Below are positions 10,799-29,474 of a DNA stretch of 58,329 nt, piece after piece (positions within the stretch are counted from its first letter, which is position 1; each line of letters opens with the position of its first letter). This DNA comes from an uncultured Bdellovibrionales bacterium (GTDB lineage Bacteria; Bdellovibrionota_C; UBA2361; OMII01). A program made the position numbers and the translations under genes. The notes under the pieces are model-generated. The model searched no databases. It was given only the letters and a program-made list of their open reading frames with translations, and was not told the DNA's origin. The stretch is taken from the NCBI GenBank assembly GCA_964654585.1, contig CAZZJR010000004.1, forward strand, positions 13,157 through 71,485. The letters are read 5' to 3'.

Positions 10799-10825
10799 CT
10801 TTCGGCAGGCACTCTCGGTGGATTA
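10799..10825 (-). promoter_or_regulatory. Weak sigma28-like promoter candidate TAATCCAC-N11-GCCGAAAG
   Basis: Reverse-strand match with canonical spacing, just upstream of the FliA-like start; the -35 element matches only partly. Confidence 0.3.
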
Positions 10826-10858
10826 ACCACCGAGCTTCCTGCCCTCCCCCTACCATAA

Positions 10859-10887
10859 CTATCGGCAAGCACTGGCTAAAACCTTTA
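10859..10887 (-). promoter_or_regulatory. Sigma28-like promoter candidate TAAAGGTT-N13-GCCGATAG
   Basis: Near-consensus -35 and -10 elements on the minus strand about 75 nt upstream of the FliA-like gene; spacer 1-2 nt longer than canonical. Confidence 0.45.
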
Positions 10888-11058
10888 GTTGCCAGCAGTC
10901 ACTTACACCCAGGATAGCCCAGAAGCTAGCAGTTCCAAATACTTAACTTTTTCAGAAGCAGTTTTAGCACGGGGATGGATAAGGGGGAGAACGCCGTAGG
11001 AAAGCTAAAAACGCGGCGGAAAGGTTTTGTTTCTACTCAGAAAAACGAGGGCAGCACA

Positions 11059-11940
11059 ATGGGAGTGGCTTCAGTCAGAGAGATTTCGAAGAGAGAGAAG
11101 GCTCGCGCACGTGGTGGTGCTAAGGCAGCTACGCGTTCGTCGAAAGCAAAGCTGCGACTGGTAAAGCCGACGCTGAAGGGTGACGGGTCGCCAACACCGC
11201 TTCAGCAAGAGGCGCTCATCCTGAAATATCGGCTCAAGGCACGCAAACTCGGCCGCAGCATCCTGCGCCGCTGGCACGCCCGCATGGACCTCGACGAGGT
11301 AGACAGCCTAGTCGATCTCTCCCTGTGTGAAGCTGTAAAGCGCTTCAACCCGTCAAAGGGTGCAAGCTTTATGACCTTCCTGTTTTACCACCTAAAAGGC
11401 AACCTCGTTCGTTCGGTCGCCGCGGCGGCCGCTTCGGCATCTCTCCCGTCAAGCCTGCTCGCTGAGGGCGAGGGCACTCCACTCAGTGGAGACCTGATGG
11501 GCGAGCTGAGCCTGCGGGGCCTAAACTCGGCGGAGATCGCCGAGGCAATTTCAAGTCAGGACGCTCCGCAGCCAGATGAGGCGCTGTGGAAGAAGCAGCT
11601 TCACGGCCAGAGCTCACTGGCTTGCGAGAAGCTCGACGCCCTTGAGCAGGAGATCATAAAGCGCATCTTCATCCAGGAGCAGCAGATCATGGATATCGCA
11701 GCTTCCCTCGGATACAGCCGCTGCCACATCTCACGTGTCAAGAAGAAGGCTCTAGAGACGCTGTACGACGAGCTGCGTGGCGCGATGAACCAGGATGACC
11801 TTGGCCAGCGCCCGTCGTTCGACGATGATTCCGATGATGAGGTCGAGCAGCGGATCATGAACCGTAAAGCGATCCACCGCCGCCGGCCGCGCTCTCGCGC
11901 ATCGAAGCAGTCACCATTCGTTCCAGCTCGCGCCGCGTAA
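11059..11940 (+). CDS. Sigma-70 family sigma factor, SigB/F-like, 293 aa
   Basis: Region 2 (SLCEAVKRFNPSKGASFMTFLFYHLKG) and region 4 HTH (LEQEIIKRIFIQEQQIMDIAASLGYSRCHISRVKKKAL); basic N- and C-terminal tails. Start could be 10975. Confidence 0.85.
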   Translation: MGVASVREISKREKARARGGAKAATRSSKAKLRLVKPTLKGDGSPTPLQQEALILKYRLKARKLGRSILRRWHARMDLDEVDSLVDLSLCEAVKRFNPSKGASFMTFLFYHLKGNLVRSVAAAAASASLPSSLLAEGEGTPLSGDLMGELSLRGLNSAEIAEAISSQDAPQPDEALWKKQLHGQSSLACEKLDALEQEIIKRIFIQEQQIMDIAASLGYSRCHISRVKKKALETLYDELRGAMNQDDLGQRPSFDDDSDDEVEQRIMNRKAIHRRRPRSRASKQSPFVPARAA

Positions 11941-11970
11941 GGTATGCCCTCTCGAACCTGGTGCGCCCTC

Positions 11971-12663
11971 CTAGGGACGCGGCAGCCGTTTCTCGGTCGG
12001 AGACAGCTTAGGGATCGAGATAATGTGCCGCTCAATCTCGCTTCCGGGAATTCGCACCGTCAAGATACGGGGCGCCCCGCCCCCCAGAGCTTTTAACAGC
12101 TTCTCGTGCCCCTCCATCTCTTGCTCGTAACCAGCGCCCTTCAGCGCGACTGCAACGCCGCCGGGCTTTACAAGCGGGAGCATCCATTCAATGAGCACGG
12201 GGTAGGGAGCTACAGCCCGCGACGTGACGACGTCGTACCGCTCGCGGTGCGCGGGGTCGTGCGCGATCCTCTCAGCTCGCGCGTGGAGACCCGAGACGTT
12301 TTCGATTCCAGAGGAGGCTGCAGCCTCACTCGCAAAGCGCACCTTTTTGCCGGTGGAGTCCAGGAGCGTTACGCGGGCGTCGGGGCGTAAAGCGGCGATA
12401 GGAACTCCGGGAAAGCCCGCGCCTGTGCCGATGTCGATAATGGCGAGGTCTCGTGCGGTCGGGAGGGCAGGGAGAGCCGCCAACGAGTCTAAGAGGTGCA
12501 GCTTAACAAAATCGGCGCGAGCAATCCGGGTGAGGTTGAATGAGCGATTCGTCTCGTCAAGGAGTGCGAGGAAGCGCAGCAGAGCCGCTACCTGATCGGC
12601 GCTGGCCGGGACGCCGAGTTGCGCCAATCCACTGCTAAGCTCTCTCTGCTCTTCGCTGCTCAC
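11971..12663 (-). CDS. rsmG: 16S rRNA m7G527 methyltransferase RsmG (GidB)
   Basis: FNLTRI, HLLDSL, IDIGTGAGFPGVPIA, LLDSTGKKVRF, DVVTSRAVA motifs. Confidence 0.95.
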   Translation of the reverse strand: MSSEEQRELSSGLAQLGVPASADQVAALLRFLALLDETNRSFNLTRIARADFVKLHLLDSLAALPALPTARDLAIIDIGTGAGFPGVPIAALRPDARVTLLDSTGKKVRFASEAAASSGIENVSGLHARAERIAHDPAHRERYDVVTSRAVAPYPVLIEWMLPLVKPGGVAVALKGAGYEQEMEGHEKLLKALGGGAPRILTVRIPGSEIERHIISIPKLSPTEKRLPRP

Positions 12664-12866
12664 GTAAGCTCTCCGTTATCGCCAAAATTCCCCATACACC
12701 CGTTCAGAAAGTGAATCGTACACTGAAGAGGGCGGGATGAGAATGCCGCTGGGAAGAGTGCCCAACAAGTTTCCGATGTGGACGATGTGGTTGACGCAGG
12801 GTGAGGGGGCAGAGCGCGGTAGTTGGCTGGGCGATTTGGTAAAAGAGCTTGCGGCAGCAGCGGCGG

Positions 12867-13775
12867 CTACTCGACGCTCTGCGGTTCGACCGCTGCTTCT
12901 TCGGGTGAGTCTGGAAGCTTTGCCCAGGTCTGTAAACTCTCGCCAAGCTTCTCCTCGAAATCCTCTAGGGTCAGCCCGAACGCAGACTCGAAGGCGGTCG
13001 GGCTATCCACTCCTTTGCGTAGCGATGTGAGGTAATCTCCGATCCGTTCGAAGCCGAAGGCCTTGATCATAGCCTTAGAGGCGAGGAGAGATTGGGCATA
13101 TGCGGCTGGAACCATCGTCGGTTCCAGCTTAGTGAAGCCACCCTGCAATCGGCCGAGCGGCACCGGATTGTGGTGCTTGAGCCAGCTCTTGAGAGCTTTG
13201 CGCAGAGCGGGATGCTCTTGTCCCTCAGCCCACTGTGCGATGCCTTCATCGAGCCAGCCAGGAATCTGCCCCCCAGACATCGACGACAGGATTGCATGCG
13301 TGAACTCGTGCCGCACTGAGCGGTCGAGGTTGTCGATGTCGATCGGCTTGGTATTCGATAGCGGGATAATAATCTCTCCACGGAAGAACATGGCGTTAGT
13401 CCAGGTGGGTGCTCCTGTTAGCTCGTAGAAGGCGTCCTCATCCATCAGGCGGATGGCGGTGCTGAAGGCAGGAATTCGTTCAAAGCGGTCGGTGTACTCA
13501 TTGTGCGTTCGGTTGAGGGAGACCACCAGCTCCTCCGCGAGGTCGCTCCAGCGCGAGGGAGAGATAAGGGTGAGCTTGCTTCCATCTGCGAGGTCGAGCG
13601 GAGTAAAGCGCAGCGGGGAGTCCTCGTCGGTGGGGGCAATGAAGCGCGCCCGTTGGTCGGATGATTTGGGGTCGGCAGCCGCGATCCCCACGTACAGCAG
13701 GATGCCGACGGAGAGCGCTGAGAGTAGCGAACTCAAGGGTCCCTTTCTTAGTTCAGCCAGTGGCCTCTGCGGCAT
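12867..13775 (-). CDS. Exported zinc metallopeptidase with peptidase MA-like domain
   Basis: N-terminal hydrophobic helix; VRHEFTHA (HExxH) followed by PGWLDEGIAQW. Confidence 0.8.
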   Translation of the reverse strand: MPQRPLAELRKGPLSSLLSALSVGILLYVGIAAADPKSSDQRARFIAPTDEDSPLRFTPLDLADGSKLTLISPSRWSDLAEELVVSLNRTHNEYTDRFERIPAFSTAIRLMDEDAFYELTGAPTWTNAMFFRGEIIIPLSNTKPIDIDNLDRSVRHEFTHAILSSMSGGQIPGWLDEGIAQWAEGQEHPALRKALKSWLKHHNPVPLGRLQGGFTKLEPTMVPAAYAQSLLASKAMIKAFGFERIGDYLTSLRKGVDSPTAFESAFGLTLEDFEEKLGESLQTWAKLPDSPEEAAVEPQSVE

Positions 13776-13994
13776 GGCGGGTCCTCGTTGGTCAGTAACG
13801 CAAAAGGGGGAAGGAACGGCGGAGCAGCGGAAAAGTTAGGAGCCCTTCCCCTCAGAGGATCTTTCGGCACTTTCCCGGTCCAGCATGAGCGCGGAGTCGC
13901 CGCTTGAGGGCGCTCGAAACCGGCAATTTCTGCTCGTTTTGCGAATTTGTGCCGCTAACTAGGCAGGGAGACGGGCTCGGGGTCGGCTGTTTGC

Positions 13995-14024
13995 TTGTGA
14001 CAATCGTCGGATTTTCAGTATACT
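13995..14024 (+). promoter_or_regulatory. Sigma70-like promoter candidate TTGTGA-N18-TATACT
   Basis: Good -10 and plausible -35 about 120 nt upstream of the HesB/IscA gene. Confidence 0.4.
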
Positions 14025-14143
14025 GGGGAGGTTATTGGTGGTCCGGTCATAAAAGTCCTGGCGGCTAGAGGCACCCCGTGATTTTCCCCCATCAGTGGGG
14101 TGGAACGGCGAGCCTCGGGAAATCCAAACTGAGAGGAAGTGTT

Positions 14144-14572
14144 ATGGGTTCATGTGGAAGTTCATCTTGTGGTAGCGGCTGCGGTCCGAAGAATGTTGCT
14201 CCGGAGCAAACTCTAGAAGCTACTGAAGCGTTCACCGGCACAGATGAGAGGCCAGTTCTCTTCACCGCAGCGGCTGCGGATGCGGTTTCTAAGGCGCTGA
14301 AGGAAGAGGGCGAGCCGGGGGACTTCTTGCGAGTGTCAGTGGTTGGTGGCGGCTGCTCTGGTTACCAGTACGGGCTCGATTTCGATAAAGAAGAGCGGAT
14401 GGGCGACATCGCCATGGAGTTTGAGGGCGTGAAGGTCGTTGTTGACCCAGTGAGCGCTGGTTACCTACGTGGTACGGTTGTTGACTACGTGACTGGTCTT
14501 CACGGCACGGGTTTTCAGTTCAAGAACCCGAACGCGAAGCGCACCTGTGGTTGCGGTAGCTCGTTCAGCTAG
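14144..14572 (+). CDS. erpA: HesB/IscA/ErpA-family Fe-S cluster carrier protein, 142 aa
   Basis: GGGCSGYQY and FKNPNAKRTCGCGSSF motifs; ATG at 14144 after GAGGA. Subtype (ErpA vs IscA/SufA) uncertain. Confidence 0.9.
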   Translation: MGSCGSSSCGSGCGPKNVAPEQTLEATEAFTGTDERPVLFTAAAADAVSKALKEEGEPGDFLRVSVVGGGCSGYQYGLDFDKEERMGDIAMEFEGVKVVVDPVSAGYLRGTVVDYVTGLHGTGFQFKNPNAKRTCGCGSSFS

Positions 14573-14598
14573 ATCCGGGGCGTTGCGGCGCAAATAAG

Positions 14599-14634
14599 AA
14601 GCCGGCGTTGGGTCAGCCAACGTCGGCTTTTTTT
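14599..14634 (+). terminator. Intrinsic terminator after erpA
   Basis: AAGCCGGCGTTGG-GTCAG-CCAACGTCGGCTT stem running into a T tract. Confidence 0.85.
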
Positions 14635-14767
14635 ATGCTCGGGCTCCGAGCCGAGAAGAGAAACACAGTTACCTGACTGTGACGTGGCAGAACGGCTATC
14701 AAGCTTCTTGCCTGGCAGGCCGGGAAGCAGGAGACTGTCCCTTTCTCAGTACGTGACCAGGTGAACT

Positions 14768-15289
14768 ATGAGTAAGCCACGCCTGTTACCAGTGGTCGTT
14801 ATCTTCCAGATCAATATCCTTCAGCTCAATGCGTGCAGCATGGGGGTAAGTCCGAAGGGCTCGATCGCCGACGTGGTCGGAGCCTCTCAACATGGACTCG
14901 AGGTCGCCGCCACCACCGAGGACTTGGCGCGTAGCGAGGTCCTTCAGAGCCCGACCGACTTTGACGTTACGATCGAGCAAGATCGCTACGCATGGGAGCG
15001 AACGCACCTTTTCCTTGAGAGCTACGTCGATCCACAGCGCGCGCCGGTGCGGCCGATCACCAAGGTTGTTGGTTCGCGTTGGGGCCTAGCGAGCCCACCG
15101 GTGCACGGTGGCTACGTGTACGAGGTGTGGCGTGAGACAATACCTGACGGCTTTCACTACTCAGTGCGCTGCGTGGCTGCTCCCGAGGCATCAAAAGACC
15201 AGGCGGCGCTGAATGCGGGGAACCTTGCGCGCTTCATCCGCGATGGGAAGCTTGAAGTATCCCTACTCCCAGCCGTGGTAGCGAACTAA
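14768..15289 (+). CDS. Hypothetical protein, possible lipoprotein
   Basis: ATG start; N-terminal hydrophobic stretch ending in LNAC; typical codon usage. Confidence 0.65.
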   Translation: MSKPRLLPVVVIFQINILQLNACSMGVSPKGSIADVVGASQHGLEVAATTEDLARSEVLQSPTDFDVTIEQDRYAWERTHLFLESYVDPQRAPVRPITKVVGSRWGLASPPVHGGYVYEVWRETIPDGFHYSVRCVAAPEASKDQAALNAGNLARFIRDGKLEVSLLPAVVAN

Positions 15290-15425
15290 GCGCAAGGGTG
15301 CTTTGACTCCGGGCATCTGAGCTGCGGGCATCAAGGGCCTGCGAAAAACTACCAACTAGCCCATACCGTTGGTGCAACGTCTTGATACTAGGACGTTACT
15401 TTCTACTCTGAATAGGGTTCCCCAC

Positions 15426-15453
15426 TAAAGCCCGGCGCAAGTTGCGCCGATAG
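15426..15453 (+). promoter_or_regulatory. Sigma28-like promoter TAAAGCCC-N12-GCCGATAG upstream of the subtilase
   Basis: Close match to the TAAAGTTT-N11/12-GCCGATAA consensus, 47 nt upstream of the ATG, correct orientation. Confidence 0.6.
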
Positions 15454-15500
15454 ACTTTTCTGTAGATTCCAATTGGGAATCGGCAGCCGGGAAGAGCACT

Positions 15501-17921
15501 ATGTGTCAGGCCCTGTGCAGAGCCGCCCAGCGGGTGCGGCAGACGCTTCTGGTCAGCGCAGCAGCTTTTGCGTGCGGCGTTGACTGGTCCGAGTCTGCAG
15601 CGCAAGAGCTGCGGGTGGTGCCTGGCGAGTACATTGTGACGCTGCCTGCGCGTGCGTCAGGCAAGAGCGTTACAGCTGCCGCTTCGAGCCCAAACTTTTC
15701 ATCCTCGATGGTTGGTGTTGCTGACGTGCTGAACGGCGAGGCCCTAGTCGTGCGGGCTCCCGGTAACGGCGTGATGCGCGCGGCGACAGCTGCTGCAGAT
15801 GGCTCTGTGCCGTACCGAGCCGAGCACGACCTCTGTAAGGCGATCCTTGCCGAGGGGCGAGCCGAGAGCTGCTCCCCCAACTTTGTTGTCCGGGCCCTGG
15901 CTGTTCCCAACGACCCCCAGCTGTCGCAACTGTGGGGTCTGAGCGAAGCGAGCGGAATCAATGCGCCGCGGGCTTGGGACCTCTTCACCGGGTCAAGCTC
16001 GATCGTTGTGGCGGTGATCGACACAGGGATAGACTACAATCACCCGGACCTGGCCGCGAACATGTGGAGAAATCCGGGAGAGATCGCGAGCAACGGGGTT
16101 GACGACGATGGTAACGGATACGTCGACGACCTGTACGGAATTAATGCTCGAACTGGCGCGGCACAGCCTGGAAATCCGCTGGATGACCACTACCACGGGA
16201 CACACGTAGCAGGAACCATCGGCGCTGTGGGCAACAATGGAATAGGCGTCGTGGGGGTCAATCAGCGCGTGAAGATGATGGCGCTCAAGTTCCTCTCGTC
16301 AACTGGCAGCGGCAGCCTATCTGACGCGATCCGGGCGATCGACTACGCTACCATGATGAAGAACGACTACGGGGTGAACGTCCGGGTTTCGAACAATTCG
16401 TGGGGCGGCGGAGGTTACTCGGCCGCATTGGAGAATGCTATCAAACGCGCCCGAAATGCGGGGATCATCTTCGTGGCGGCGGCTGGAAACTCCAGTGTAG
16501 ACACTGACTCAGAACCGAGCTACCCATCAGGATACGATGTGGACAATGTCGTGTCGGTCGCCGCTATCGACAGCTCGCACAACCTTGCGACCTTTTCCAA
16601 TTACGGCGCCACGACGGTTGATATCGCCGCGCCGGGAGTCGATATTCGCAGCACCATGCCGACTTCGCAGTACGGCAAGTTATCGGGTACGTCGATGGCA
16701 ACGCCGCACGTAGCCGGAGCGCTCGCGCTCTTGCTGGGTCGGGAGCCAGGGCTTAGCTACCTCGAGGCTGTAGACCGGTTGTACCTCTCTGGGGTGACCA
16801 GGGCATCCCTGGTCGACATACCCACCGGGGTGTCTCTTGTGCGAACTCAACGAACTCTAAACGTCGCACGGATGCTCTACAACGAAACAGCGCCCCTGCC
16901 GTCCCTGCCCCCGAACCAGGTTCCGTGCGGGTACAGCTTCCAGTCGGCTAACCTGCTTGCGGGCGGCGAAGTGGACACGGCAGCCGATGAGGCCCCGATC
17001 GTCAACCAGACTGATGAAGGGAGCTTCTACCAAATTGACCTGCCGTTCTCCTTCCAGTTCTTCCGGGAGAGCGTCAACAGAATCTGGCTCTCGCCCAACG
17101 GGATCGTCTACACCAAGTCGCCGCTGGGGCTTGATTACGTTGTGAGCGCTAAGGCGCCGAAAAACTCTATCGCGGCGCTGCACACTGACCTCATTCCCCG
17201 AGCGGCGGATCAGGGCGTCAGGGTAGCTGTCTCGGATAACAAGGTAACGGTGATGTGGAGGTCCGAACACTACGGACTCCCGGGTCAGGGGGTCATCACT
17301 GTTCGTTTGACGATACGCGCAGATGGTACCTATTCATCGTCCGCGCACTTCGGTTCGGATGGGCTCAATTACGCTCTCAAGAATCAGGTTCTCGGTAATC
17401 CATTCGAATCGACCCCGACCGACGGCCGCGCGCTGGTCGGAGTGACCGGGGCACTCTCAACGTTCTTCTCGGTTCTTGACCTGGCTGCCACCCAGACCGC
17501 CCTGACTTCATCCTCAAGCGAGGCACTGGCTTTGGGGGCGGGGATGACCACGAGCTGTGCGGTCGCGCCACCGCCCCAGGATGGAGACTCAGAGCCCGTA
17601 ATCACAGGGGTGGTCATCAGCCAAACCGGTGCCGGCCGTTTAAGTGTGCCGGCACAGGTGGCTCTCTACGGGTCGGGGTCGGGTAGTGTCCCGGTGACGT
17701 TCAGGGTTAACTCCCGCACCTGCCGAAGTACGGTGCCGTTCAACCTAAGCGATGGCACTGCACGGGTTAGGTTACGGGTTCCGGCAGGCGTACGGGGGTT
17801 GACCGCGTCCGCCTCGAGTGCGAGCGATTCAATTCGTTTCCGTTGGTCGGCAGGAGCGGGGGCAGGTGCGAGCGACTCAACTCGCTGCGCCAGGCTCCTG
17901 AGGAGTGTTACCCCCTTCTAA
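15501..17921 (+). CDS. Secreted S8 (subtilisin-like) serine protease with C-terminal beta-rich domains, 806 aa
   Basis: Catalytic triad motifs VAVIDTGID, HYHGTHVAGTI, SGTSMATPHVAG; oxyanion AAAGN; prodomain VPGEYIV. Confidence 0.93.
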   Translation: MCQALCRAAQRVRQTLLVSAAAFACGVDWSESAAQELRVVPGEYIVTLPARASGKSVTAAASSPNFSSSMVGVADVLNGEALVVRAPGNGVMRAATAAADGSVPYRAEHDLCKAILAEGRAESCSPNFVVRALAVPNDPQLSQLWGLSEASGINAPRAWDLFTGSSSIVVAVIDTGIDYNHPDLAANMWRNPGEIASNGVDDDGNGYVDDLYGINARTGAAQPGNPLDDHYHGTHVAGTIGAVGNNGIGVVGVNQRVKMMALKFLSSTGSGSLSDAIRAIDYATMMKNDYGVNVRVSNNSWGGGGYSAALENAIKRARNAGIIFVAAAGNSSVDTDSEPSYPSGYDVDNVVSVAAIDSSHNLATFSNYGATTVDIAAPGVDIRSTMPTSQYGKLSGTSMATPHVAGALALLLGREPGLSYLEAVDRLYLSGVTRASLVDIPTGVSLVRTQRTLNVARMLYNETAPLPSLPPNQVPCGYSFQSANLLAGGEVDTAADEAPIVNQTDEGSFYQIDLPFSFQFFRESVNRIWLSPNGIVYTKSPLGLDYVVSAKAPKNSIAALHTDLIPRAADQGVRVAVSDNKVTVMWRSEHYGLPGQGVITVRLTIRADGTYSSSAHFGSDGLNYALKNQVLGNPFESTPTDGRALVGVTGALSTFFSVLDLAATQTALTSSSSEALALGAGMTTSCAVAPPPQDGDSEPVITGVVISQTGAGRLSVPAQVALYGSGSGSVPVTFRVNSRTCRSTVPFNLSDGTARVRLRVPAGVRGLTASASSASDSIRFRWSAGAGAGASDSTRCARLLRSVTPF

Positions 17922-17995
17922 GGTGGCTGCCATCCAGGCTCGCTGCCGTGTTACAAGCCCTGTGGGCTCTACAACGCTACCAAGTGGAATCGCAC

Positions 17996-19288
17996 ATGAC
18001 TGAGATCGCATCACCTTTCTTTCCCGACCTTGCTCCCCAGCTTGACCGATACGCAACACTGATAGCCGCTCACGGTCTCAACGTGCAGCCGGGGCAGCTC
18101 GTCCAGGTAATGGGGGAGAGCTACCACCGCCCACTCTACCAGCGGCTGCTGCGCGAGCTGTATCGCCGCGGCGCCGGCTTCGTGCACGTTGAACTCTCGG
18201 ATCCACTGCTGCAGCGCATCAGGATCCAGGAGTCCCAGCCGCAGTTCCTACGGAGCACACCCGGCTTCTACTCAGCTAAGTTCCGGGAGCTAGTGGACTC
18301 TGGAGCGGCTAACCTCAAGGTGCTGGGCCCAGAGTTTCCAACCTACCTTGCAGACCTCCCCACACAGTCGGTGAACGAGGTTCGCAAATCCGCCTACCAA
18401 GCGGCGAAGTACTTCTACAACGAGGGTATTGAGCGCTCAAAGGTGCACTGGTGTGTAGTCGCCGCAGCTACCCCGGGCTGGGCTGCACGGCTCTTCCCCA
18501 GCCTCTCTCCCCGCGATGCCGAGGCTCGGCTGTGGGGTGAGATCTTTCGCATCTGTCGGGTCGACCGCCCGAACTTTCTTGAGCTGTGGGAGGCGCACAA
18601 CAAGCTGCTGCACGCCCGTGCGCGGCGGCTGACAGAGCTGAAGATCAAGGAGCTGCACTTTGAGGGGCCTGGTACTGACCTAGTCGTCGGGCTATCGGAG
18701 CTGGCGCTCTTTAAGGGGGGTTCAGACCTCGCCCCGACTGGACATAGCTTCGAGCCGAACCTGCCGACTGAGGAGTGCTTTACGACGCCTGATTGGCGAG
18801 CGACCCGTGGAACCGTCGCTGCCACGAGGCCCTTTCTGGTCAATGGCACCTTGGTCCGCGACTTAACGCTCACCTTCACGAATGGTGAAATCTCGCATTT
18901 TGAGTGTCGCGCGGGAGGGGACGCCCTGCGCTCATACTTGGAGAGTGATGCGGGCGCGAAGAAGCTGGGAGAAGTGGCACTAGTCGGCACCGATTCGCCA
19001 GTGTTCCAGAGCGGTTTGGTATTCGAGGAGATATTGTTCGACGAGAATGCGGCCTGCCACATCGCGGTTGGGTCGGCGTACAAGGGGTGTCTGCGCGGGG
19101 GCGCAGGCATGAGTGACGTCGAATGTGCTGATATCGGCTGTAATTCCAGCTCAGTGCACACCGACATCATGATCTCTTCGGAGCAGGTTAGTGTAACCGC
19201 GAATCTCTTCAGTGGAGAGCGATTGATGCTGATCGATAGAGGTCGATGGACAGCAGATCTCGCCCCGCAGGGATCGTCGAGAGCATGA
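17996..19288 (+). CDS. M29-family aminopeptidase (AmpS/AmpT-type)
   Basis: HGLNVQPGQLV, FEGPGTDLVVGL, PNLPTEECFTTPD, LGEVALV, LFDENAACHIAVGSAY, SSVHTDIMI motifs. ATG at 17996. Confidence 0.92.
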   Translation: MTEIASPFFPDLAPQLDRYATLIAAHGLNVQPGQLVQVMGESYHRPLYQRLLRELYRRGAGFVHVELSDPLLQRIRIQESQPQFLRSTPGFYSAKFRELVDSGAANLKVLGPEFPTYLADLPTQSVNEVRKSAYQAAKYFYNEGIERSKVHWCVVAAATPGWAARLFPSLSPRDAEARLWGEIFRICRVDRPNFLELWEAHNKLLHARARRLTELKIKELHFEGPGTDLVVGLSELALFKGGSDLAPTGHSFEPNLPTEECFTTPDWRATRGTVAATRPFLVNGTLVRDLTLTFTNGEISHFECRAGGDALRSYLESDAGAKKLGEVALVGTDSPVFQSGLVFEEILFDENAACHIAVGSAYKGCLRGGAGMSDVECADIGCNSSSVHTDIMISSEQVSVTANLFSGERLMLIDRGRWTADLAPQGSSRA

Positions 19289-19901
19289 CGCGCAACCTTT
19301 CCGGTGCAGAGCAACATCAAATAAGTACTTGCCAACACGTTCGTTGGGTGTCACCATTTTTTCAGTGCTCGGTCTCTCACTGACTGCAGAAAATCTAGCG
19401 GCCCTCATTAAGAGTCGCAGTCGGCAGTGAGTGAGCGACCAAACCAAGGGTGAGCGATGCTTGTCCGGGCAAGGAGCAGGCACCAGCTTCGTGAAGTAGG
19501 ATACGAGGCGGTGATGTTGAAGGAAGGTTGGTCGGTAGCTTGGCGGTGGAGGAAGGTAGTAGTTGTCCCCTCCGGTGCTATCGCGAGCTGCGAGGATCCG
19601 CGGCGAGGTGAGAAAGCTCTTCCCTTGTCTCGAAAAATCTTGCAGCATTCGTAGAGAAGAATTGTCAAGCGATGCATCTTATCTTCCGATAAGGCAAAGC
19701 AGACAGTCCCTCAAGTAATTTGCGCAGTGTCTTCTACACGATTGGAGGTAAGGCGCGAGAGTTGAGGGGATAAAAGTTTCGGGTATACGGCATACTTTTG
19801 GGGAGGGTTTTCCCGGCTCGCGAGAGGTGCTGAGGCTCGATTAACAAACGTAGATAGCGGTTAGAACTAGTTCTTCCGCAATCAACACTGGAGAAAAAAA
19901 A

Positions 19902-19982: not shown

Positions 19983-20002
19983 GCAGCGCTTTGCGTCTTA
20001 CG

Positions 20003-20045: not shown

Positions 20046-20138
20046 GCCTCGCCTGACCCTCGCATTGTGCGCGTAAATGACAATTTACAAACGAAGTTAG
20101 AAAAAAACTAGCGGAGGTGATGCGCTGGGGATGCAGCG

Positions 20139-21629: not shown

Positions 21630-21763
21630 TGTTGATCCATGGGATACGAGCCGCACAAGCGGCTGGAGGGGATGTATCAAAGTGCTGCTGCCTAAGATAC
21701 CCGCTTCCAGTGGGGAAATGGGACTGGTCGGGACGGATTCGAACAGGACCAGACAGGAGGAGA

Positions 21764-23557
21764 TTAACGGTCGAAGCCGATATTTGCGGCAGCATTCTCC
21801 GCGCCAATGATCTCGCTCCGCAGGCGCGCGTTGAAGAGCTGGCCGGCCGCGAAAATGATGCGCGGGTCCCCAGCTTTGCTCCCGTCGGGTCCGTCGCGCA
21901 GGGGAACGGCGACGTCTATTCGCACTATGCCGCCGCCGCTGGATCGCGGGAAGCAGAGGCGCAAGCCCACTCCCACGTCGCTGTAGACGTCATCGGAAAA
22001 GAGCTCAGTGATTGAGTTTGAGTTTGCTGCGCCGATATCGACAAACGCGGCGGTCCCCAAGCTTACGAGCTGGAAAACGTCGTCCGCTAAGTGAGTGCGC
22101 TCCTCAAGATTAAGCACGAAGCGTTTGTCACCAGAGAAGGTGTTTATATCATAGCCCCGTAGTCCGGTGTCAGCTCCTAACAGGAGCTGTCGATCCTTGT
22201 CCAGCTTTTCGCCGAAATCGAGGTAGAACTGGCTTGCGAAGGTGTGCCGTCCTAGGAATTGCTCACCCATGAAGAGGTCTCCGATCACGGAGTAGTATTT
22301 AGCTTCTCCGCGCAGCAGCGTGTTCTCAACTTGGTCCTGAGCTATTCGGGTGGACCCGCCGATCTCGCCACGCAGGAAGGAGCGTTCAGTGGTCTTCCAG
22401 CCGCGGCTGCGGTTTGCTGTTGCGAGGACTGCGTTGTACAGGGAGCCCAGAGACGTTGGGGCAACCTGCATCAGTACCAACGACTCGTCGCCGAGGTTGT
22501 AGTCTTCCGGGCGGTCAAACCGATCGATGTAGTTCATAGTGATGAACTTTGGCTGAACTGACTGGTACTGGAAAAGGGGGCCGTTGAAGCGTCGGTCCGT
22601 CGGCAGGTCGGCTGGATTGTTGCTGACGGTTGATGGGTTTAGGTCCAGGTCTTTGTAGTCTTGTTCAGTCGCCTGGTAGAAGCTCGCATTGTCGTAGCCG
22701 AAGCCCACCGAGTAGCGCTGCGACAGGATCGTCTGGCCCTTGAAGATACCGGTGTACGGATCGTCCTCCTCAGCCGGGTGAGCGCCCTTTCCGGCGAAGG
22801 TGTAGAGAGCCGTGAAGTCGTCGAGGTGCTGACGAAAGATGTACGTTTCGGTGCCGGCGTACCAGAGTCGACCGACCGTGTTCTGCTTTCCAGCATCGAT
22901 CTGCCACGCGTCACGCTGCTCAAGGCTGCGGAAAGGGAGACCGTACACGAGTTCGTAGACGGTGCCGTCCGAACGCTCTGCTATCCCGACATCCATGTTG
23001 TGTAAGGTGCCGAAAGCCTGCCGGTCGCTGACGGCGAAGCCGTACGAAGTACGGGACGCCTGCTCAATGTAGCGCCAATCAACCCTCGTCGCGCCGCCAC
23101 CGAGGTTTGAGTCGGTGAGGCCGACGCCGCGGTTTGTCTGGCCGGTGCCTGACGAGTAGCTGAGGAAGGGTATGAGCGTCCAGGCATCGCGGGCGTACAC
23201 CGCCACGTCGACTGCATCGCCGTCGAATGTTGGCACGACACGGATTTCACGTAGGTATCGTATCAACCGCAGGTTTCGCTCGAACTGCTTGAGGAGGTAC
23301 GGGTCGAATCGGTCGCCCTCTTTAAAGAGTAACTCATTTCGAATCACGCTCTCGTGAGTCTTGTACTTGAGGGATTCGGCAATCTTGTAGGGAGTGCTCG
23401 AATAATCCTCAAAGATGTCGTTGATTTTGATCGTGATGGAGCGAATGTAACGCTTCCCGGGTTTTACCAGACTCGGGGCCGGATTCTGGGCAAGGACAGG
23501 GGAGACCGCCGAAAAGAGCAGCACGAGGAGCACTAAGATGCGTTGAAAAATCGACAT
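21764..23557 (-). CDS. Omp85/BamA-TamA-like outer-membrane beta-barrel protein (single POTRA), 597 aa
   Basis: Signal peptide; POTRA-like THESVIRNELLFKEGD; loop-6 motif LRGY (DTGLRGYDINTF); AFVDIG and DVGVGLR strands. Confidence 0.82.
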   Translation of the reverse strand: MSIFQRILVLLVLLFSAVSPVLAQNPAPSLVKPGKRYIRSITIKINDIFEDYSSTPYKIAESLKYKTHESVIRNELLFKEGDRFDPYLLKQFERNLRLIRYLREIRVVPTFDGDAVDVAVYARDAWTLIPFLSYSSGTGQTNRGVGLTDSNLGGGATRVDWRYIEQASRTSYGFAVSDRQAFGTLHNMDVGIAERSDGTVYELVYGLPFRSLEQRDAWQIDAGKQNTVGRLWYAGTETYIFRQHLDDFTALYTFAGKGAHPAEEDDPYTGIFKGQTILSQRYSVGFGYDNASFYQATEQDYKDLDLNPSTVSNNPADLPTDRRFNGPLFQYQSVQPKFITMNYIDRFDRPEDYNLGDESLVLMQVAPTSLGSLYNAVLATANRSRGWKTTERSFLRGEIGGSTRIAQDQVENTLLRGEAKYYSVIGDLFMGEQFLGRHTFASQFYLDFGEKLDKDRQLLLGADTGLRGYDINTFSGDKRFVLNLEERTHLADDVFQLVSLGTAAFVDIGAANSNSITELFSDDVYSDVGVGLRLCFPRSSGGGIVRIDVAVPLRDGPDGSKAGDPRIIFAAGQLFNARLRSEIIGAENAAANIGFDR

Positions 23558-23882
23558 CGTTATCTTGGCAGCCGTTCGCCCTGCGGAGAGCGAACAAGAC
23601 GAAATTCCTCAATCTTTACGATGCAATTATCAAGATTTACGGTCCCGAAGAAGACCCGTGCCCAGCGAGATTTGCCGCAAAAAATCGGGTTCCGAAGGGC
23701 GTTGGTACCAACGCCTAAACTGGTCGCAGGGGCTGGGGCGGGCGACTGCATTGTCGTCGCGTCGGAGTCGCAACAGCTGCGAGACTGAGTCGGTGTTCTA
23801 CTTTTTAGCGGGCGTTGCTGCCGAAAATTATACTCATCTGAATTCGTTGACGTATTTCGGAGGGGTAGCTATCGTTCGGCGG

Positions 23883-25166
23883 ATGACCTCCTGGAGTTTC
23901 TCTCGAAAGATAGCCCTGCGGTACCTCTGGAGCAGGCGCTCGGAGGCGTTCATCTCGATTATAACGGTTATATCGGTGCTCGGCGTCGCGATCGGCGTGA
24001 TGGTGCTTAACATCGTTATGGCGGTGATGAGCGGGTTCGAGACGGAGCTACGCGAGAAGATAGTAGGCACCGATTCCCACATTGTGATTAGCAGCCGAAA
24101 CTCGGCCTGGATAGAGGACTGGCGCAGTGTTGCGGGAGCTGTGCAGGGAGTAGCGGGCGTAAAATCCGTTTCGCCATTTACGTACCACCAGGTGCTGATC
24201 CGTTCGCAATCACGAGCATCTGGGGTTCTGCTGCGCGGGATCGAGAAGGGCAGCGCCTCGGCCGAGCAGGTGAAGAGCTACCTCGGCCCAAAGCAAAGTC
24301 TCGATGCGCTCTTTGATCCGCCGACAGTCACTGTGTTGATGGCATCAGGCGAAGAGAGTGAGGCTTCCATCCCCGGCATACTGCTTGGTCGCTCGCTCGC
24401 CCAGACGTTGGGTGTGTTCGTTGGAACTCCGGTGTCAGTTCTCTCTCCGCAGGTAAGCTCAACACCTTTCGGCCTAGTGCCGAGTTTCCGCCGCTTCGTT
24501 GTTTCCGGGACCTACAGCTCCGGGCTAGTCGAGTATGAGAACGGAGTGGCGTACATAAGCCTCGAAGAGGCCCAGCGATTTTTCGGCATGAATGGAGGCG
24601 TCACGGGGCTTGAGGTCCGGATCGGGGATGTAAATGAGGCGCCGGTGCTCGCGAAACAGATCCTAGATACGCTCGGAGGAGCTGGATCGAATTTCATCGT
24701 CCGGGACTGGACCGCAACCAATCGGCCGCTCTGGGACGCTATTCAGCTCGAGAAGCGGGTGTACTTCATCGTGCTGCTTCTGATCATCGTGATGGCGAGC
24801 TTTTCAATTATTACAACGCTCATAATGATAGTGATCGAGAAACGAAAGGATATCGCCATCATGAAGACGCTCGGAGCGTCAACGAAGAGCGTGAGCCGCA
24901 TCTTCCGCATCCAAGGAGCGGTGATAGGAGGTCTCGGCACCCTGCTCGGGTTGCTGCTTGGTTTCCTCGGCTGTGTTGGGCTCAAGAAGTTCGGATTCCC
25001 GATCGACGAGCGCATCTTTCAGATGTCTCAGCTTCCGGTTCAGATCGACCCACTAAATTTTGCGCTGGTCGGCATCTCTGCGTTCCTCATTTGTTTCTTC
25101 GCCACCGTCTATCCGGCGCGCCGTGCTGCGAGCCTCGAGCCGAGTGAGGTGCTGCGCTATGACTGA
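23883..25166 (+). CDS. lolC: Lipoprotein-releasing ABC transporter permease LolC/E
   Basis: IALRYL..., VLNIVMAVMSGFETELREKI, EKRKDIAIMKTLGAS, YPARRAASLEPSEVLRYD motifs. Confidence 0.93.
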   Translation: MTSWSFSRKIALRYLWSRRSEAFISIITVISVLGVAIGVMVLNIVMAVMSGFETELREKIVGTDSHIVISSRNSAWIEDWRSVAGAVQGVAGVKSVSPFTYHQVLIRSQSRASGVLLRGIEKGSASAEQVKSYLGPKQSLDALFDPPTVTVLMASGEESEASIPGILLGRSLAQTLGVFVGTPVSVLSPQVSSTPFGLVPSFRRFVVSGTYSSGLVEYENGVAYISLEEAQRFFGMNGGVTGLEVRIGDVNEAPVLAKQILDTLGGAGSNFIVRDWTATNRPLWDAIQLEKRVYFIVLLLIIVMASFSIITTLIMIVIEKRKDIAIMKTLGASTKSVSRIFRIQGAVIGGLGTLLGLLLGFLGCVGLKKFGFPIDERIFQMSQLPVQIDPLNFALVGISAFLICFFATVYPARRAASLEPSEVLRYD

Positions 25167-25893
25167 TCGTCGGGAGCGAGCCGGAGTTCGGCTCGGCGTG
25201 GAGCTGCGTAACCTTACCAAGCGCTACCGCGATGCGGATCGCGATTTAACGGTCATTAGTGGCCTCACGTTTTCGTTCCCTGAGCAGGGGACGATTGCGA
25301 TCATTGGGCGATCCGGAATCGGAAAATCGACTCTGATGCACCTGATAGGTGCCCTCGATACGCCATCGGAAGGAGCGGTCCTCTTCGGCGGCCAAGACGT
25401 GAGTGCGATGGGCTCTGATGAGAGGGCAGCCTTCCGTGCGCGGAATGTCGGATTTATTTTTCAATTTCACCACCTTCTCCCTGAGTTCTCTGCCGAGGAG
25501 AACGTTGCGATGCCGCTCATCATGTCAGGCATGCACGAGGGTGAGGCGCGCGCCGAAGCGGCCGCCTTGCTTAGCCGCATGGGGCTTGCGGAGCGCGCTG
25601 CACACCTTCCATCGCAGCTCTCAGGCGGTGAACAGCAGCGTGTTGCGATAGCGCGCGCGCTCATCACGAAGCCGCGCGTGGTGCTGGCAGATGAGCCGAC
25701 TGGGAACTTGGATGTGCGCACCGCTACCGAGGTGCAGAAGCTTCTGCTGGAAATGAACAGAGAGCTAGACAATACGCTGATCGTCGTGACCCACAACGAA
25801 GAGTTAGCACAGAGCATGGACATGGTCGTAGAGATGACGCCGGGTGGAGCGCTCGTTGAGCACCGCAAGGCGAGGCGAGTGCCGGAGGAGTGA
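25159..25893 (+). CDS. lolD: Lipoprotein-releasing ABC transporter ATPase LolD
   Basis: Walker A GRSGIGKST, LolD motif GFIFQFHHLLPEFSA, LSGGEQQRVAIARAL, DEPTGNLD; overlaps lolC. Confidence 0.93.
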   Translation: MTDRRERAGVRLGVELRNLTKRYRDADRDLTVISGLTFSFPEQGTIAIIGRSGIGKSTLMHLIGALDTPSEGAVLFGGQDVSAMGSDERAAFRARNVGFIFQFHHLLPEFSAEENVAMPLIMSGMHEGEARAEAAALLSRMGLAERAAHLPSQLSGGEQQRVAIARALITKPRVVLADEPTGNLDVRTATEVQKLLLEMNRELDNTLIVVTHNEELAQSMDMVVEMTPGGALVEHRKARRVPEE

Positions 25894-28196
25894 TGAGGAG
25901 AGTCCAATTCTGGAGTCTGGCGCTGTGCGTTTTGCTCGTTGCAGCGGTCGTGACCGCGCACCCCGCCGCTGCCCAGGGAGGCGAGTCGTACGTTGTGCAT
26001 GGCGTCGAGATCGAGGGGAATAGGCGTATCGATACGGGCGCTGTCATGTCACAGCTGGCAAGTGTGCCGGGGCGAGTTACCGCGGCGCAGCTGAGCGATG
26101 ACGTAAAGACGCTCTACAACTCCGGGTATTTCGACCAGGTTCAAGTGTCAGTTGTTCCGCGCGGGGATGGCTCCGTAACGGTCAAATTCTCCGTTTCCGA
26201 GAAGCCCATCGCCAGGAAGATCTTCATCAAAGGAAACGACGAGGTAAGTGAAGATGACCTGAGTGAGGTGCTGAAGCTGGATGGCAGGCGCTTCGTTGAT
26301 CGAGCAAAGATTCAGGCCCTCATCCGGAAAGCCACAGCGTACTACCAGACGCAAGGCTACTACGACGCCTCGCTCGACTACTCAACTACTCCGGTTGGAG
26401 ACAACGAGGTGGACGTCACCTTCGACGTAAAGGAGGGGAAACTGTACCACGTGCGGGAGGTAGTGCTTCAGGGTGTAGCTGATCTCGATGAAGACGAGAT
26501 GCGGGCGGTTCTGCAGACCCAGAGGTACAAGTGGTGGAGCTCATGGCTCTTCGGCACCGGAAAGGTGAGTGAGGAGATGACTGAAGCGGACAAGCAGGTG
26601 CTGCGGCAGTACCTGCTCGACCACGGATACATTGAGGGTAATGTCGGAGAGGCTTCGATAGACAAACGCGATGACGGGCTGTACGTCGTGTTCGACATCT
26701 CAGAGGGAGAGCAGTTTAAGATTGGAAAGATCACGGCAGCAGGCGACCTTGTCGATGGCTCCGAGGAAAAGACGGTTGAGGACCTCAAGAGTGAGCCGGG
26801 TGACGTCTTTAGCGCTTCCAAGGTTCGGGCGGATATCTTCACTATCACTGATCGATTCGGTGATGAGGGTTACGCTTTTGCAAACGTGGTGCCGAACTCC
26901 GAGATTCACCGCGACGAAGGCACGGTAGACCTTGCGTTCACAAGCACAAAGGGCAATCCCGTGAAGATTGGCAAGATTACCATCTCGGGCAACGAAAAGA
27001 CGTATGACAACGTCATCCGGCGAGAGATGCGAATCGAGGAGCAGCACCGTTACAGTGGGACCAAAATTCGCCGCAGCCAGACCCTGCTGCAGCGTCAGGG
27101 GCTCTTCGAGGAAGTGAATATTACCAACAAGCCAACCTCGGACCCCTCAGTGGTCGACCTAGACGTCAACGTCAAGGAGGGAACGACGGGCAGCTTCACT
27201 GCAGGAGCCGGATACTCCACCGCCAACGGAAGTCTCTTTAATACCAAAATCTCTGAGAATAACCTTTTTGGAACGGGGAATAAGCTTAACCTGAACCTTG
27301 ATTTCGGTAGTCAGGTTTCAAACCAGGTGCTCTCATTCGATAATCCACGCGTCAATGATAGCTTCGTTTCGGCCGGAGCCGACCTTCTCCGCACGACTCG
27401 GCAGTACCAAGACTTCAATCGCGAGCTCGAAGGAGGCTCTACTACCGTCGGCTACCCGGCTGAGCTGATTTTTGGCAAGTGGGCAGAGGATATGTCTGTT
27501 ACCCTTAAGTACGAAATGCTCCGCATCAATATTCGGGACGTCAATCCAGATTCTGCGCAGCTCGTTAAAGATTCTCAGGGATACTCGACGTCATCTGCGT
27601 TTACTCCAGCTCTCAATCGCAGCACGATCAATAATCCTACCAACCCAACTCGCGGCTCACGTCAAAATCTTTCGGTGGAGATAGCGGGAGCGGGCGGCGA
27701 CCAAGATTTTTGGCTCTTTGAGGCTAGGAACGCCTGGTACCATCCTATTTGGGAGGGAGAGGAGGGCGATGTAACGTTCGCAAACCGCACCTCATTCGGG
27801 TACGGAGAGAGCATGAACGACAATCCATTCCCGCTCTTCCGCCGATTCTTCCCGGGAGGATTGAATTCGGTGCGTGGTTACCGGAACCGCACGCTTGGTC
27901 CTACCGATATTAACGGGCAGGAGTATGGAGGTAGCAAACAGCTGATCAACAACGTCGAGGTCATCTTTCCGCTTGTGAATTCCGCGGGATTGCGCGGAGT
28001 AGTATTCTACGACGTCGGTCAAGCGTACGATGACAATCAGGCGATCGAGATCCACGACCTCCGCCAAGCAGTGGGCTACGGTATCCGTTGGAACTCTCCG
28101 ATGGGACCGATTCGGTTTGAGATCGGGTATCCGATCAACCGCCAGCCGGGCGAAGAGGCGAAGCAGACTATGTTCTCGTTCGGCGCCCCTCTCTAG
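25893..28196 (+). CDS. bamA: Outer-membrane protein assembly factor BamA
   Basis: Five POTRA-like repeats (IEGNRRID, IKGNDEV, ISGNEKTYDNVIRRE), VRGY, WNSPMGPIRFE and terminal FSFG. Confidence 0.95.
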   Translation: MRRVQFWSLALCVLLVAAVVTAHPAAAQGGESYVVHGVEIEGNRRIDTGAVMSQLASVPGRVTAAQLSDDVKTLYNSGYFDQVQVSVVPRGDGSVTVKFSVSEKPIARKIFIKGNDEVSEDDLSEVLKLDGRRFVDRAKIQALIRKATAYYQTQGYYDASLDYSTTPVGDNEVDVTFDVKEGKLYHVREVVLQGVADLDEDEMRAVLQTQRYKWWSSWLFGTGKVSEEMTEADKQVLRQYLLDHGYIEGNVGEASIDKRDDGLYVVFDISEGEQFKIGKITAAGDLVDGSEEKTVEDLKSEPGDVFSASKVRADIFTITDRFGDEGYAFANVVPNSEIHRDEGTVDLAFTSTKGNPVKIGKITISGNEKTYDNVIRREMRIEEQHRYSGTKIRRSQTLLQRQGLFEEVNITNKPTSDPSVVDLDVNVKEGTTGSFTAGAGYSTANGSLFNTKISENNLFGTGNKLNLNLDFGSQVSNQVLSFDNPRVNDSFVSAGADLLRTTRQYQDFNRELEGGSTTVGYPAELIFGKWAEDMSVTLKYEMLRINIRDVNPDSAQLVKDSQGYSTSSAFTPALNRSTINNPTNPTRGSRQNLSVEIAGAGGDQDFWLFEARNAWYHPIWEGEEGDVTFANRTSFGYGESMNDNPFPLFRRFFPGGLNSVRGYRNRTLGPTDINGQEYGGSKQLINNVEVIFPLVNSAGLRGVVFYDVGQAYDDNQAIEIHDLRQAVGYGIRWNSPMGPIRFEIGYPINRQPGEEAKQTMFSFGAPL

Positions 28197-28199
28197 GCA

Positions 28200-29414
28200 C
28201 TACGCTCGGATCAGGCTCGGATCCTTGGCAATTTTTGCAGCCTCGGCTTCGTCTTCCTCGTGAGCGAGGAATGGGTTTCTGGCGCGGCGACGGAGGAGTG
28301 CGAAGGTGTCGTGGTATCCGACTTCTATCAGCGAGTTGAGGTACTCTGGGTCGAGGGCGACGTACGACATCACCTCGTAGGCGGCCTCCTCTCCTAGCTT
28401 CGCCTTGACCAGCGTAAAGAGGGGCCACAGGGCGCCGCATGCATCCATAAAACGCTTGCGGGAGCTACCGACAGCCTGCTTAAGGTAAACCCCAAGGCTG
28501 CCTGGGTTGCGAATCGTAAGAGTTTCTGGCGGACGGAGACAGAAGGTGTCGTCACCAGCGGGAACCTCCCAGCTTGGGCGCTTGTCGTGAGCCTCGCCGT
28601 ATCTGTCGAGCCACCACGAGCGACCGGAGATATCGATAACGACGATGCGGTGGGCACCGAGTCGAACGGCCGGGTCTACCGGTATGTTCTGTGAGATTCC
28701 GCCGTCTACGAGCCGGACACGACCGCGGTCGGTATCCAGCTCAACCGGGGGAAGTATCGAGGGGAGAGCCGCTGATGCGAAGCCATGACGCGCGCTCAGT
28801 TCGTCGACGTAACACACCTCAAAGGTTGCTCCCGATAGCTCTTCTGGGGTCAGATGGTGGTGGCTGCTCAGAAAGAGCAGCGGCTTCCGTTGGGCACCGT
28901 CCATGGTAGTCATAACCCCAATGGCACGCAGCGACGGAGCTCGTCGTGATGGATTCAGCCCGCCTTGGCTCTGAATGACAGCATTGAGTCGCTCCTCAAG
29001 TGGCGAGGGATCGAGCACAGAGGTCTTAGAGGTAGTTGGGCCGGGGGCTAGGTACTGAGCGGTCGCTATTCTGATAGCGCGCAGGAAGGCACGTGTGCGA
29101 GAGCCGGCGAAGGTGTTTGAGAAGGTTCTCTCGCGCCACAGGTCTTCGAGCACTTCGATGCTCGAACCTATCCCGTTGCGGATGCAGGCTGACAGCACGA
29201 GTCCATTCACTGCACCTATGCTGCTACCGAGCACTATCGAGGTATTGTCTAGGTCTTTTCCGAGAACCTGGGCGAGCGCTTTGAGTGCCCCAGCTTGATA
29301 CGCGGCACGGACTCCCCCTCCAGACAAGACGATTCCGAGGTCACTGCTGTTCGGCTCTAGCGACTTCCGAAATTTAACCGCTTTTTGGTCCTCAGACTGT
29401 GGCCGTCTCCTCAT
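28200..29414 (-). CDS. Patatin-like phospholipase
   Basis: Gly-rich LSGGGVRA, nucleophile GSSIG, ASAALP and catalytic DGG. ATG at 29414 (AAGG RBS) or GTG at 29432. Confidence 0.9.
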   Translation of the reverse strand: MRRRPQSEDQKAVKFRKSLEPNSSDLGIVLSGGGVRAAYQAGALKALAQVLGKDLDNTSIVLGSSIGAVNGLVLSACIRNGIGSSIEVLEDLWRERTFSNTFAGSRTRAFLRAIRIATAQYLAPGPTTSKTSVLDPSPLEERLNAVIQSQGGLNPSRRAPSLRAIGVMTTMDGAQRKPLLFLSSHHHLTPEELSGATFEVCYVDELSARHGFASAALPSILPPVELDTDRGRVRLVDGGISQNIPVDPAVRLGAHRIVVIDISGRSWWLDRYGEAHDKRPSWEVPAGDDTFCLRPPETLTIRNPGSLGVYLKQAVGSSRKRFMDACGALWPLFTLVKAKLGEEAAYEVMSYVALDPEYLNSLIEVGYHDTFALLRRRARNPFLAHEEDEAEAAKIAKDPSLIRA

Positions 29415-29447
29415 AAAAACCTTGAGGTCCACTCGCCCCTAACGGGA

Positions 29448-29474
29448 ATATCGGTCCTCAGCCGAGAACCTTAA
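29448..29474 (-). promoter_or_regulatory. Sigma28-like promoter TTAAGGTT-N11-ACCGATAT upstream of the patatin gene
   Basis: Canonical spacing and near-consensus elements on the minus strand, correctly oriented. Confidence 0.55.

Follow-up and report, generated by a model that had tools for sequence, protein, structure and literature searches.

Which promoters govern the hydrolase genes that surround a pair of unusual sigma-factor genes in a relative of predatory bacteria, and which sigma factor reads them? We examined this question in a stretch of 58,329 nucleotides (nt) from contig CAZZJR010000004.1 (assembly GCA_964654585.1), hereafter the window, whose host is an uncultured member of the Bdellovibrionota and a freshwater relative of predatory Bdellovibrio, consistent with the relatives found by the sigA scan described below. 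An initial annotation, made by eye, had placed four sigma-28-type promoter motifs in the window, namely one before a secreted subtilase gene, one before a patatin phospholipase gene and a stronger and a weaker one before a FliA-like sigma gene, and had proposed that this local sigma autoregulates and drives a small regulon of lytic enzymes. All four motifs are present, each is intergenic and faces the gene named, and the gene identities hold: an S8 subtilase, a patatin-like phospholipase and two divergently transcribed sigma-70-family genes, here called sigA (P0001) and sigB (P0002). The boxes before sigA, the subtilase gene and the patatin gene are conserved in register in orthologues, making them genuine candidates for sigma-28-class promoters, and a further conserved site was found before a peptidase gene. 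We consider it quite probable that the three principal motifs and this additional site function as promoters that belong to the sigma-28 (FliA/WhiG) class.

Orthologous loci were collected by scanning species-representative genomes with sigA. This yielded 55 loci, all from uncultured Bdellovibrionota or from metagenome-assembled genomes labelled delta-proteobacteria, with lakes as the main source; sigA identity across them runs from 98% down to 52%, and the 31 sequences with an identity of at least 73% constitute the closer clade. The cross-genome comparison covered the ~20 kb surrounding sigA and, for the patatin gene, 6 kb of surrounding sequence. Upstream of sigA, (G/T)CCGATA occurs at a distance of 45-154 nt in 31 of 31 closer-clade genomes. 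When these regions were anchored on the -10 box, a TAAnGnTT-like block 12-13 nt upstream carried 0.4-1.6 bits per position, and the spacer and flanks carried 0-0.3 bits.

Of five syntenic orthologues, four retain the subtilase site in register, as TAAAGCTA-N12-GCCGATAG (L001), TAAAGCTT-N12-GCCGACAA (L002), TTAAGTTC-N12-GCCGATTG (L005) and TAAAGTTT-N12-GCCGTTGT (L030). For the patatin gene, orthologues only 52% identical, which came from a metagenome scan, carry near-perfect sites, TAAATCAT-N12-GCCGATAC in L058 and TAAAGGAT-N12-GCCGATAC in L059 and L060. The site is degenerate in L056 (83% identical), where TTAAGATC-N11-GCCGACCC keeps only TTAAG...GCCGA, and in L057, which keeps only the -35-like box. 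Because the boxes are kept in register and the spacers and flanks are randomised, the motifs of sigA, the subtilase gene and the patatin gene represent real promoter candidates. Furthermore, a matrix scan of all loci detected the site before the gene for an MA-clan metallopeptidase, with independent hits in L005, L010 and L030. This site stands in register in seven of ten orthologues as T(C/T)ATGyyy-N12-GCCGA(A/C)(A/C) and is degenerate in one; its GCCGA core is retained and the T of the -10 box is substituted.

We also quantified how far these sites stand out within the window, using a two-block weight matrix trained solely on orthologue sites from other genomes and a null of 200 first-order Markov simulations. 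The sigA site ranked first and the subtilase site second, and two sites scored at least 17 bits when 0.14 were expected. At 13 bits or more, the level of the patatin site, six sites were observed and 1.7 expected, so that window statistics alone do not distinguish the patatin site from chance. Compared with the bare Escherichia coli consensus, TAAAGTTT-N11-13-GCCGATAA, 4 of 16 positions are mismatched in the subtilase site and likewise in the patatin site, and 15 sites as good as these occur in the window (5.3 expected). A relaxed pattern gave 12 matches in the window, of which 7 were intergenic and correctly oriented, the intergenic share of the window being 18%; among these seven, one is a weak site rejected below and one lies inside a conserved non-coding block at 19289-19760. 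Moreover, scanning 1.57 Mb of related loci on both strands with the matrix gave 44 hits of at least 15 bits, compared with ~8 expected, and the majority of them were intergenic.

The composition of the four sites also corresponds to the sigma-28 class. Each carries a GCCGATAA-like -10 box with GCCGA at -15 to -11 (GCCGATAG twice, ACCGATAT and GCCGAAAG) and a TAAAG/TTAAG-like -35 box, and the GCCGA core is present in every site. In the open complex of Pseudomonas aeruginosa sigma-28, GCCGA at -15 to -11 comprises the bases that are contacted or flipped (PMC12784957). The separation between TAAAG/TTAAG and GCCGATA is 14 bp at the patatin gene, 15 bp at the subtilase and peptidase-MA genes and 16 bp at sigA; promoters of E. 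coli and P. aeruginosa have a separation of 14 bp, and those of Bdellovibrio bacteriovorus one of 15 bp. The boxes stand 25-90 nt before the start codons. The boxes themselves, their register, orientation and evolutionary conservation are direct observations, from which we infer promoter function.

Several observations weigh against this interpretation. The subtilase orthologue of L004 has no site, and neither do two of the peptidase-MA orthologues. Several sub-clades have a degenerate -35 box at sigA (TAACCCTC, TCACCTTC), and the patatin and peptidase-MA sites are not significant by window statistics alone. In addition, the sequence is present in 22 public sequencing runs, all of them DNA metagenomes and none RNA.

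Table 1. Coordinates of the putative promoters, the genes that they face and associated features of the window.
Feature	Position	Strand	Description
orf469, conserved gene	8203..9612	-	No family match; 9-nt gap after partner gene; syntenic in 26 loci
Partner gene, 113 aa	9622..9963	-	Directly downstream of sigA; present in 49 loci
sigA (P0001), 263 aa	9992..10783	-	Three-domain group-3-like sigma, by fold and profile neighbours
Stem-loop in sigA leader	10804..10843	-	-28.4 kcal/mol, z = -2.4
Putative sigma-28-type promoter of sigA operon	10859..10887	-	TAAAGGTT-N13-GCCGATAG; 26.4 bits
sigB (P0002), divergently transcribed second sigma	10975..11940	+	sigma-2 + sigma-4 only
Peptidase MA-clan metallopeptidase gene, 302 aa	12867..13775	-	Peptidase_MA_2, 4.7e-14; N-terminal signal/anchor segment
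Putative sigma-28-like promoter of peptidase-MA gene (new)	13861..13888	-	TCATGCTG-N12-GCCGAAAG; 10.5 bits
Putative sigma-28-type promoter of subtilase gene	15426..15453	+	TAAAGCCC-N12-GCCGATAG; 17.7 bits
S8 subtilase gene, 806 aa	15501..17921	+	Peptidase_S8, 1e-56; hydrophobic N-terminal signal-like segment
M29 aminopeptidase gene	17996..19288	+	Peptidase_M29, 3.5e-119; starts 75 nt past subtilase stop
Patatin-like phospholipase gene	28200..29432	-	Patatin, 4e-24; likely start ATG at 29414
Putative sigma-28-type promoter of patatin gene	29448..29474	-	TTAAGGTT-N11-ACCGATAT; 13.9 bits

The targets in the window are mostly hydrolases, as initially annotated: the S8 subtilase with its probable M29 partner, the patatin and, newly, peptidase MA. 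The subtilase and M29 genes are adjacent in L001, L002, L004 and L005 as well, and the two may be co-transcribed as operon partners. On the sigA side, orf469 probably shares a transcript with sigA and the partner gene, judging from gene spacing and synteny. In the mechanism that we propose, a group-3 sigma on RNA polymerase would read the TAAAG/TTAAG-like -35 box and the extended -10 box GCCGA(T)A, 14-16 bp apart, and transcription would start ~7 nt downstream of the -10 box; for sigA, this predicts a leader of ~70 nt. The regulon would couple proteases, presumably secreted or membrane-bound (the S8 subtilase with the M29 aminopeptidase, and the MA-clan peptidase), to the patatin lipase and to the sigA/partner/orf469 operon, in the manner of the attack-phase programme that FliA drives in B. 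bacteriovorus. The regulon is probably large rather than small and private: four conserved sites in 58 kb suggest a broad programme like the FliA attack-phase regulon of B. bacteriovorus, at odds with the small regulon first proposed.

That programme provides the closest precedent. Of 140 attack-phase promoters mapped in B. bacteriovorus, 92 contain TTAAG-N16-CCGATA, attributed to FliA, and these include promoters of proteases, surface proteins and many non-flagellar genes (PMC3627812). Because the B. bacteriovorus consensus drives such genes, a sigma-28-type promoter before hydrolase genes is expected for the phylum, and wiring of this kind is already known from Bdellovibrio itself. The HD100 attack-phase regulon belongs to the same phylum as our host and shares its consensus (here TAAAG/TTAAG-N15-17-CCGATA), its non-flagellar targets such as proteases and cell-surface proteins, and the expression of the sigma gene along with the regulon (Karunker et al. 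2013, PMC3627812). The two differ in that B. bacteriovorus uses a canonical FliA in a flagellated cell, whereas the sigma genes in our window are two highly divergent ones and the regulon is read from sequence.

Other sigma-28 systems resemble the locus in part. The flagellar system of E. coli, Salmonella and P. aeruginosa, with its class 3 promoters and FliA-FlgM checkpoint, shares with it the bipartite TAAAG...GCCGATAA (PMC12784957), a sigma gene behind its own promoter class, a small gene that follows this sigma gene and, close by, a type III secretion-like cluster. In contrast, hydrolases take the place of flagellin and chemotaxis genes as targets here, the boxes stand 14-16 bp apart instead of 14, the partner has no FlgM similarity and sigA scores below the family cut-off. 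Streptomyces WhiG-RsiG is represented by structures 6PFV, 6PFJ and 7LQ4 in the Protein Data Bank (PDB), and WhiG is among the best structural matches of sigA. However, WhiG satisfies the family model and is controlled by cyclic di-GMP through RsiG, whereas sigA falls below the cut-off. SigD, the sigma-28 homologue of Bacillus subtilis, drives the autolysins LytC, LytD and LytF and is likewise a sigma-28-class factor that drives lytic enzymes. Those autolysins remodel the wall of the cell that makes them and are under joint control with flagella, whereas the targets here are proteases and a lipase of a presumed predator. Finally, sigma-28 of Chlamydia trachomatis, a non-flagellate with type III secretion, serves the late genes hctB and tsp, which encode a lysine-rich histone-like protein and a protease (PMC12282069, PMC10597470). 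A gene for a lysine-rich product, a microprotein of 26 amino acids, lies in our window too, but no conserved sigma-28 site can be assigned to it, and phylum and lifestyle are different.

We also estimated which sigma factor is likely to read these sites. A canonical FliA encoded elsewhere in the genome has about an even chance of being the reader, with sigA then a downstream member of a sigma cascade, and is the more economical choice compared with sigA. The boxes are canonical, while several of the promoter-contact residues of sigA are replaced by others that are invariant within its family: H75 (R82 in P. aeruginosa sigma-28), T79 (L86), G87 (D93), L206 (S224) and R210 (Q228). The Arg after the Trp is also displaced by one residue compared with P. 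aeruginosa R97. Against the NCBIfam model TIGR02479, sigA scores 33.4 bits, through region 2 only, and the FliA/WhiG cut-off is 189.6; its family profile reaches FliA in the PDB at only E = 0.08. These results argue against the initial view of the local sigma as the reader. A search of the 62 loci compared gave no canonical FliA; an extra sigma of FliA-like type occurs in L044 alone (90.8 bits, below the cut-off), and the additional sigma of L023 is RpoS/RpoD-like, not FliA-like.

The alternative, to which we give clearly less than an even chance, is that sigA reads the sites itself, activates its own operon and drives the hydrolases in place of a flagellar FliA, with the 113-amino-acid partner acting as an anti-sigma. 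Enteric fliA has a class-3 self-promoter, to which the sigA site can be likened, and the strongest and best-conserved site belongs to sigA. The protein has the group-3 architecture of sigma-2 along with sigma-3 and sigma-4, with sigma-28 as the closest fold: the AlphaFold model (pLDDT, the predicted local distance difference test score, of 83) shows three helical domains, and its top Foldseek matches are sigma-28/FlgM (1RP3), WhiG (6PFV and 6PFJ) and P. aeruginosa sigma-28 (9WSM). It keeps Y69, R73 and R83, the equivalents of P. aeruginosa Y76, R80 and R90, together with the following W88. When 1.84 billion representative proteins were searched with a profile, ~26 clusters, many being fragments, were found at E <1e-13 and 39 at E <=1e-10, followed by a drop in score and roughly 800 weaker hits. 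All ten of the best full-length outsiders checked match FliA/WhiG models, below the cut-off, with TIGR02479 the top model for eight. Since its nearest outsiders match FliA/WhiG models, sigA is a lineage-specific, sharply isolated offshoot of the sigma-28 branch.

Two further lines of evidence bear on this alternative. The distant clade, whose DNA-contact residues are equally invariant, mostly lacks a GCCGATA promoter before sigA, which argues against autoregulation as a general property; other genes of distant-clade genomes, for example in L030, L041 and L046, still carry a promoter of the GCCGATA type. Moreover, the sigB/sigA/small-protein trio is syntenic in ~50 genomes, and the conserved small partner gene would suit an anti-sigma. 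The partner protein has a low-complexity N-terminal half and a conserved helical C-terminal half (E-E-A...A-V-K-M-A-I-D). Its identification as FlgM was unsupported: 0 of 29 family members match Pfam FlgM even at E <=10, and a comparison of the family profile with the PDB retrieved none of its FlgM chains at the same threshold. By position and shape, it is a candidate anti-sigma.

A bolder combination, which we regard as unlikely, holds that the lineage has no canonical FliA, that sigA, always encoded with a second atypical sigma and a small, half-disordered partner, reads the sites and that this partner is a new kind of anti-sigma, possibly freed by export through a type III-like machine. Production of the hydrolases and the lipase would in that case be coupled to the assembly or firing of that non-flagellar machine, with the patatin as possible cargo. 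The sigA locus of the window does lie beside a divergent type III secretion-like cluster. In the distant relative L044 (10862-15528), the third sigma, of 301 amino acids, aligns end to end with FliA/WhiG and lies directly upstream of sctJ-like and FlhA/SctV-like genes; its adjacency to sctJ...sctV physically links a sigma-28-like factor to a type III secretion cluster. The gene before sctJ on the 3.2-kb contig upstream of our window is not a sigma. That gene (L062 1-126, upstream of window position 1) ends in …RVSHGDWLKFGDVEFLVIIVP, and its C-terminus looks FHA-like by eye (compare SctD/YscD). The patatin gene is ~22 kb away from the type III secretion-like cluster, and its product has no visible signal peptide, unlike the subtilase and peptidase MA.

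It is very unlikely that the boxes are bound by a factor outside the sigma-28 class, be it a transcription regulator or the two-domain sigB with a look-alike bipartite site, and sigB as the reader is improbable in its own right. The sigB gene is next door, and its best PDB sequence matches are FliA (1RP3, 1e-7), better than those of sigA, although they run through region 4 only; against TIGR02479 it reaches 44.6 bits, also below the cut-off. Its model joins sigma-2 and sigma-4 by a disordered linker of 40 residues with no sigma-3, and its region 2.4 lacks the Arg/Trp signature that reads GCCGA. The box sequences, their separation and their distance to the start codons fit the sigma-28 class, including the Bdellovibrio consensus. 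Alignment of the two sigmas by hhalign (95% probability, 17% identity) indicates that sigA and sigB are remote paralogues. Lastly, it is hardly credible that the motifs are functionless and match a short, degenerate consensus by chance in intergenic DNA that is AT-richer: about five sites as poor as those of the subtilase and patatin genes are expected per window, and equally good matches lie inside genes (at 3038, 22012 and 41378), but the latter are not conserved, whereas the promoter sites keep their register across orthologues with randomised spacers and flanks.

These results extend to a deep, uncultured freshwater lineage the finding from Bdellovibrio that sigma-28-type promoters run a predatory programme and not just flagellar genes. 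The four evolutionarily validated promoters can seed regulon prediction for these genomes, and the comparison singles out a conserved module of two atypical sigmas and a small partner protein. If that module reads the promoters in place of a standard FliA, it would constitute a new branch of sigma-28 biology, possibly with a link to a type III-like machine that is not flagellar; with a standard FliA as the reader, the result is ordinary though useful annotation.

The weaker promoter that had been annotated before sigA, TAATCCAC-N11-GCCGAAAG at 10826-10800 on the minus strand, was rejected. It is not conserved even in L001 and L002, the nearest relatives, which are 97-98% identical; there, the core is mutated (GCTGAAAG) and the -35 box is replaced. 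In the window, TAATCCAC forms the loop and 3' arm of the leader hairpin, and GCCGAAAG shares bases with the lower stem and with the ribosome-binding site AAAGGA. This hairpin, GGCAGG...CUCGGUGG-UUAAU-CCACCGAG...CCUGCC, is retained with differing sequence in L001 (CAGGGG-TAGA-CCCCTG), L002 and L013-L018, and the conservation of its position with different sequences suggests selection for structure.

Further observations concern the sigma genes. The true start of sigB is likely Met29 at 11059, which is nearly invariant in 30 orthologues, unlike the residues before it. At 10937-10960 on the plus strand lies a box, AAATACTTAACTTTTTCAGAAGCA, with the core (T/C)GCTTC(A/T)G and an A/T run on the sigA strand; it occurs once in the window and is found again in the majority of the 55 loci, those of both clades included, and in the closer clade at a near-fixed distance of ~100 nt upstream of sigB Met29. 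This box is a candidate promoter or operator of sigB. In L023 and L025, ~6.7 kb are inserted between the partner gene and orf469 (L023 1897-8557), and the insert carries an RpoS/RpoD-like sigma gene (367 amino acids; RpoS model, 221 bits).

The spacer of the subtilase promoter contains a perfect palindrome, GGCGCAA-G-TTGCGCC, at 15434-15448. We considered this element (GGCGCAAGTTGCGCC) as an operator and rejected it because it is not conserved in L001 or L002, where the orthologues are 82% identical; it is probably fortuitous.

Other window matches to the sigma-28 pattern were likewise discarded. The match at 3038-3064, which L001 and L002 have lost, lies inside a DUF3313 gene, that at 22012-22038 is antisense inside an Omp85-like gene, and that at 41378-41404 falls inside an rpmG (L33) gene absent from the long-open-reading-frame list. 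For the match at 14699-14726, before a lipoprotein gene, relatives do not have GCCGA as the -10 box. The match at 19665-19691 (TCAAG-N16-CCGATA) sits in a fully conserved non-coding block with a CTTATC-TTCC-GATAAG hairpin. This block is part of a non-coding stretch of ~450 nt (19289-19760) between the M29 aminopeptidase gene and the gene for the 26-amino-acid lysine-rich microprotein, conserved in blocks in L001, L002, L004 and L005, in which complementary conserved arms (CTCACTGAC...GTGAGTGAG) flank variable segments. The stretch matched no Rfam, tRNA or tmRNA model, and Rfam and tRNA scans of the 58-kb window as a whole gave no match; it is a candidate new structured RNA, on one strand or the other. 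The small open reading frame at 41272-41508 on the plus strand encodes a ribosomal protein L33-like product (…KLKVRKYDPIARKHVLFEDKK…) with a C-terminal extension; the frame overlaps the TTG annotated as the start of the P-type-ATPase-like gene that lies downstream.

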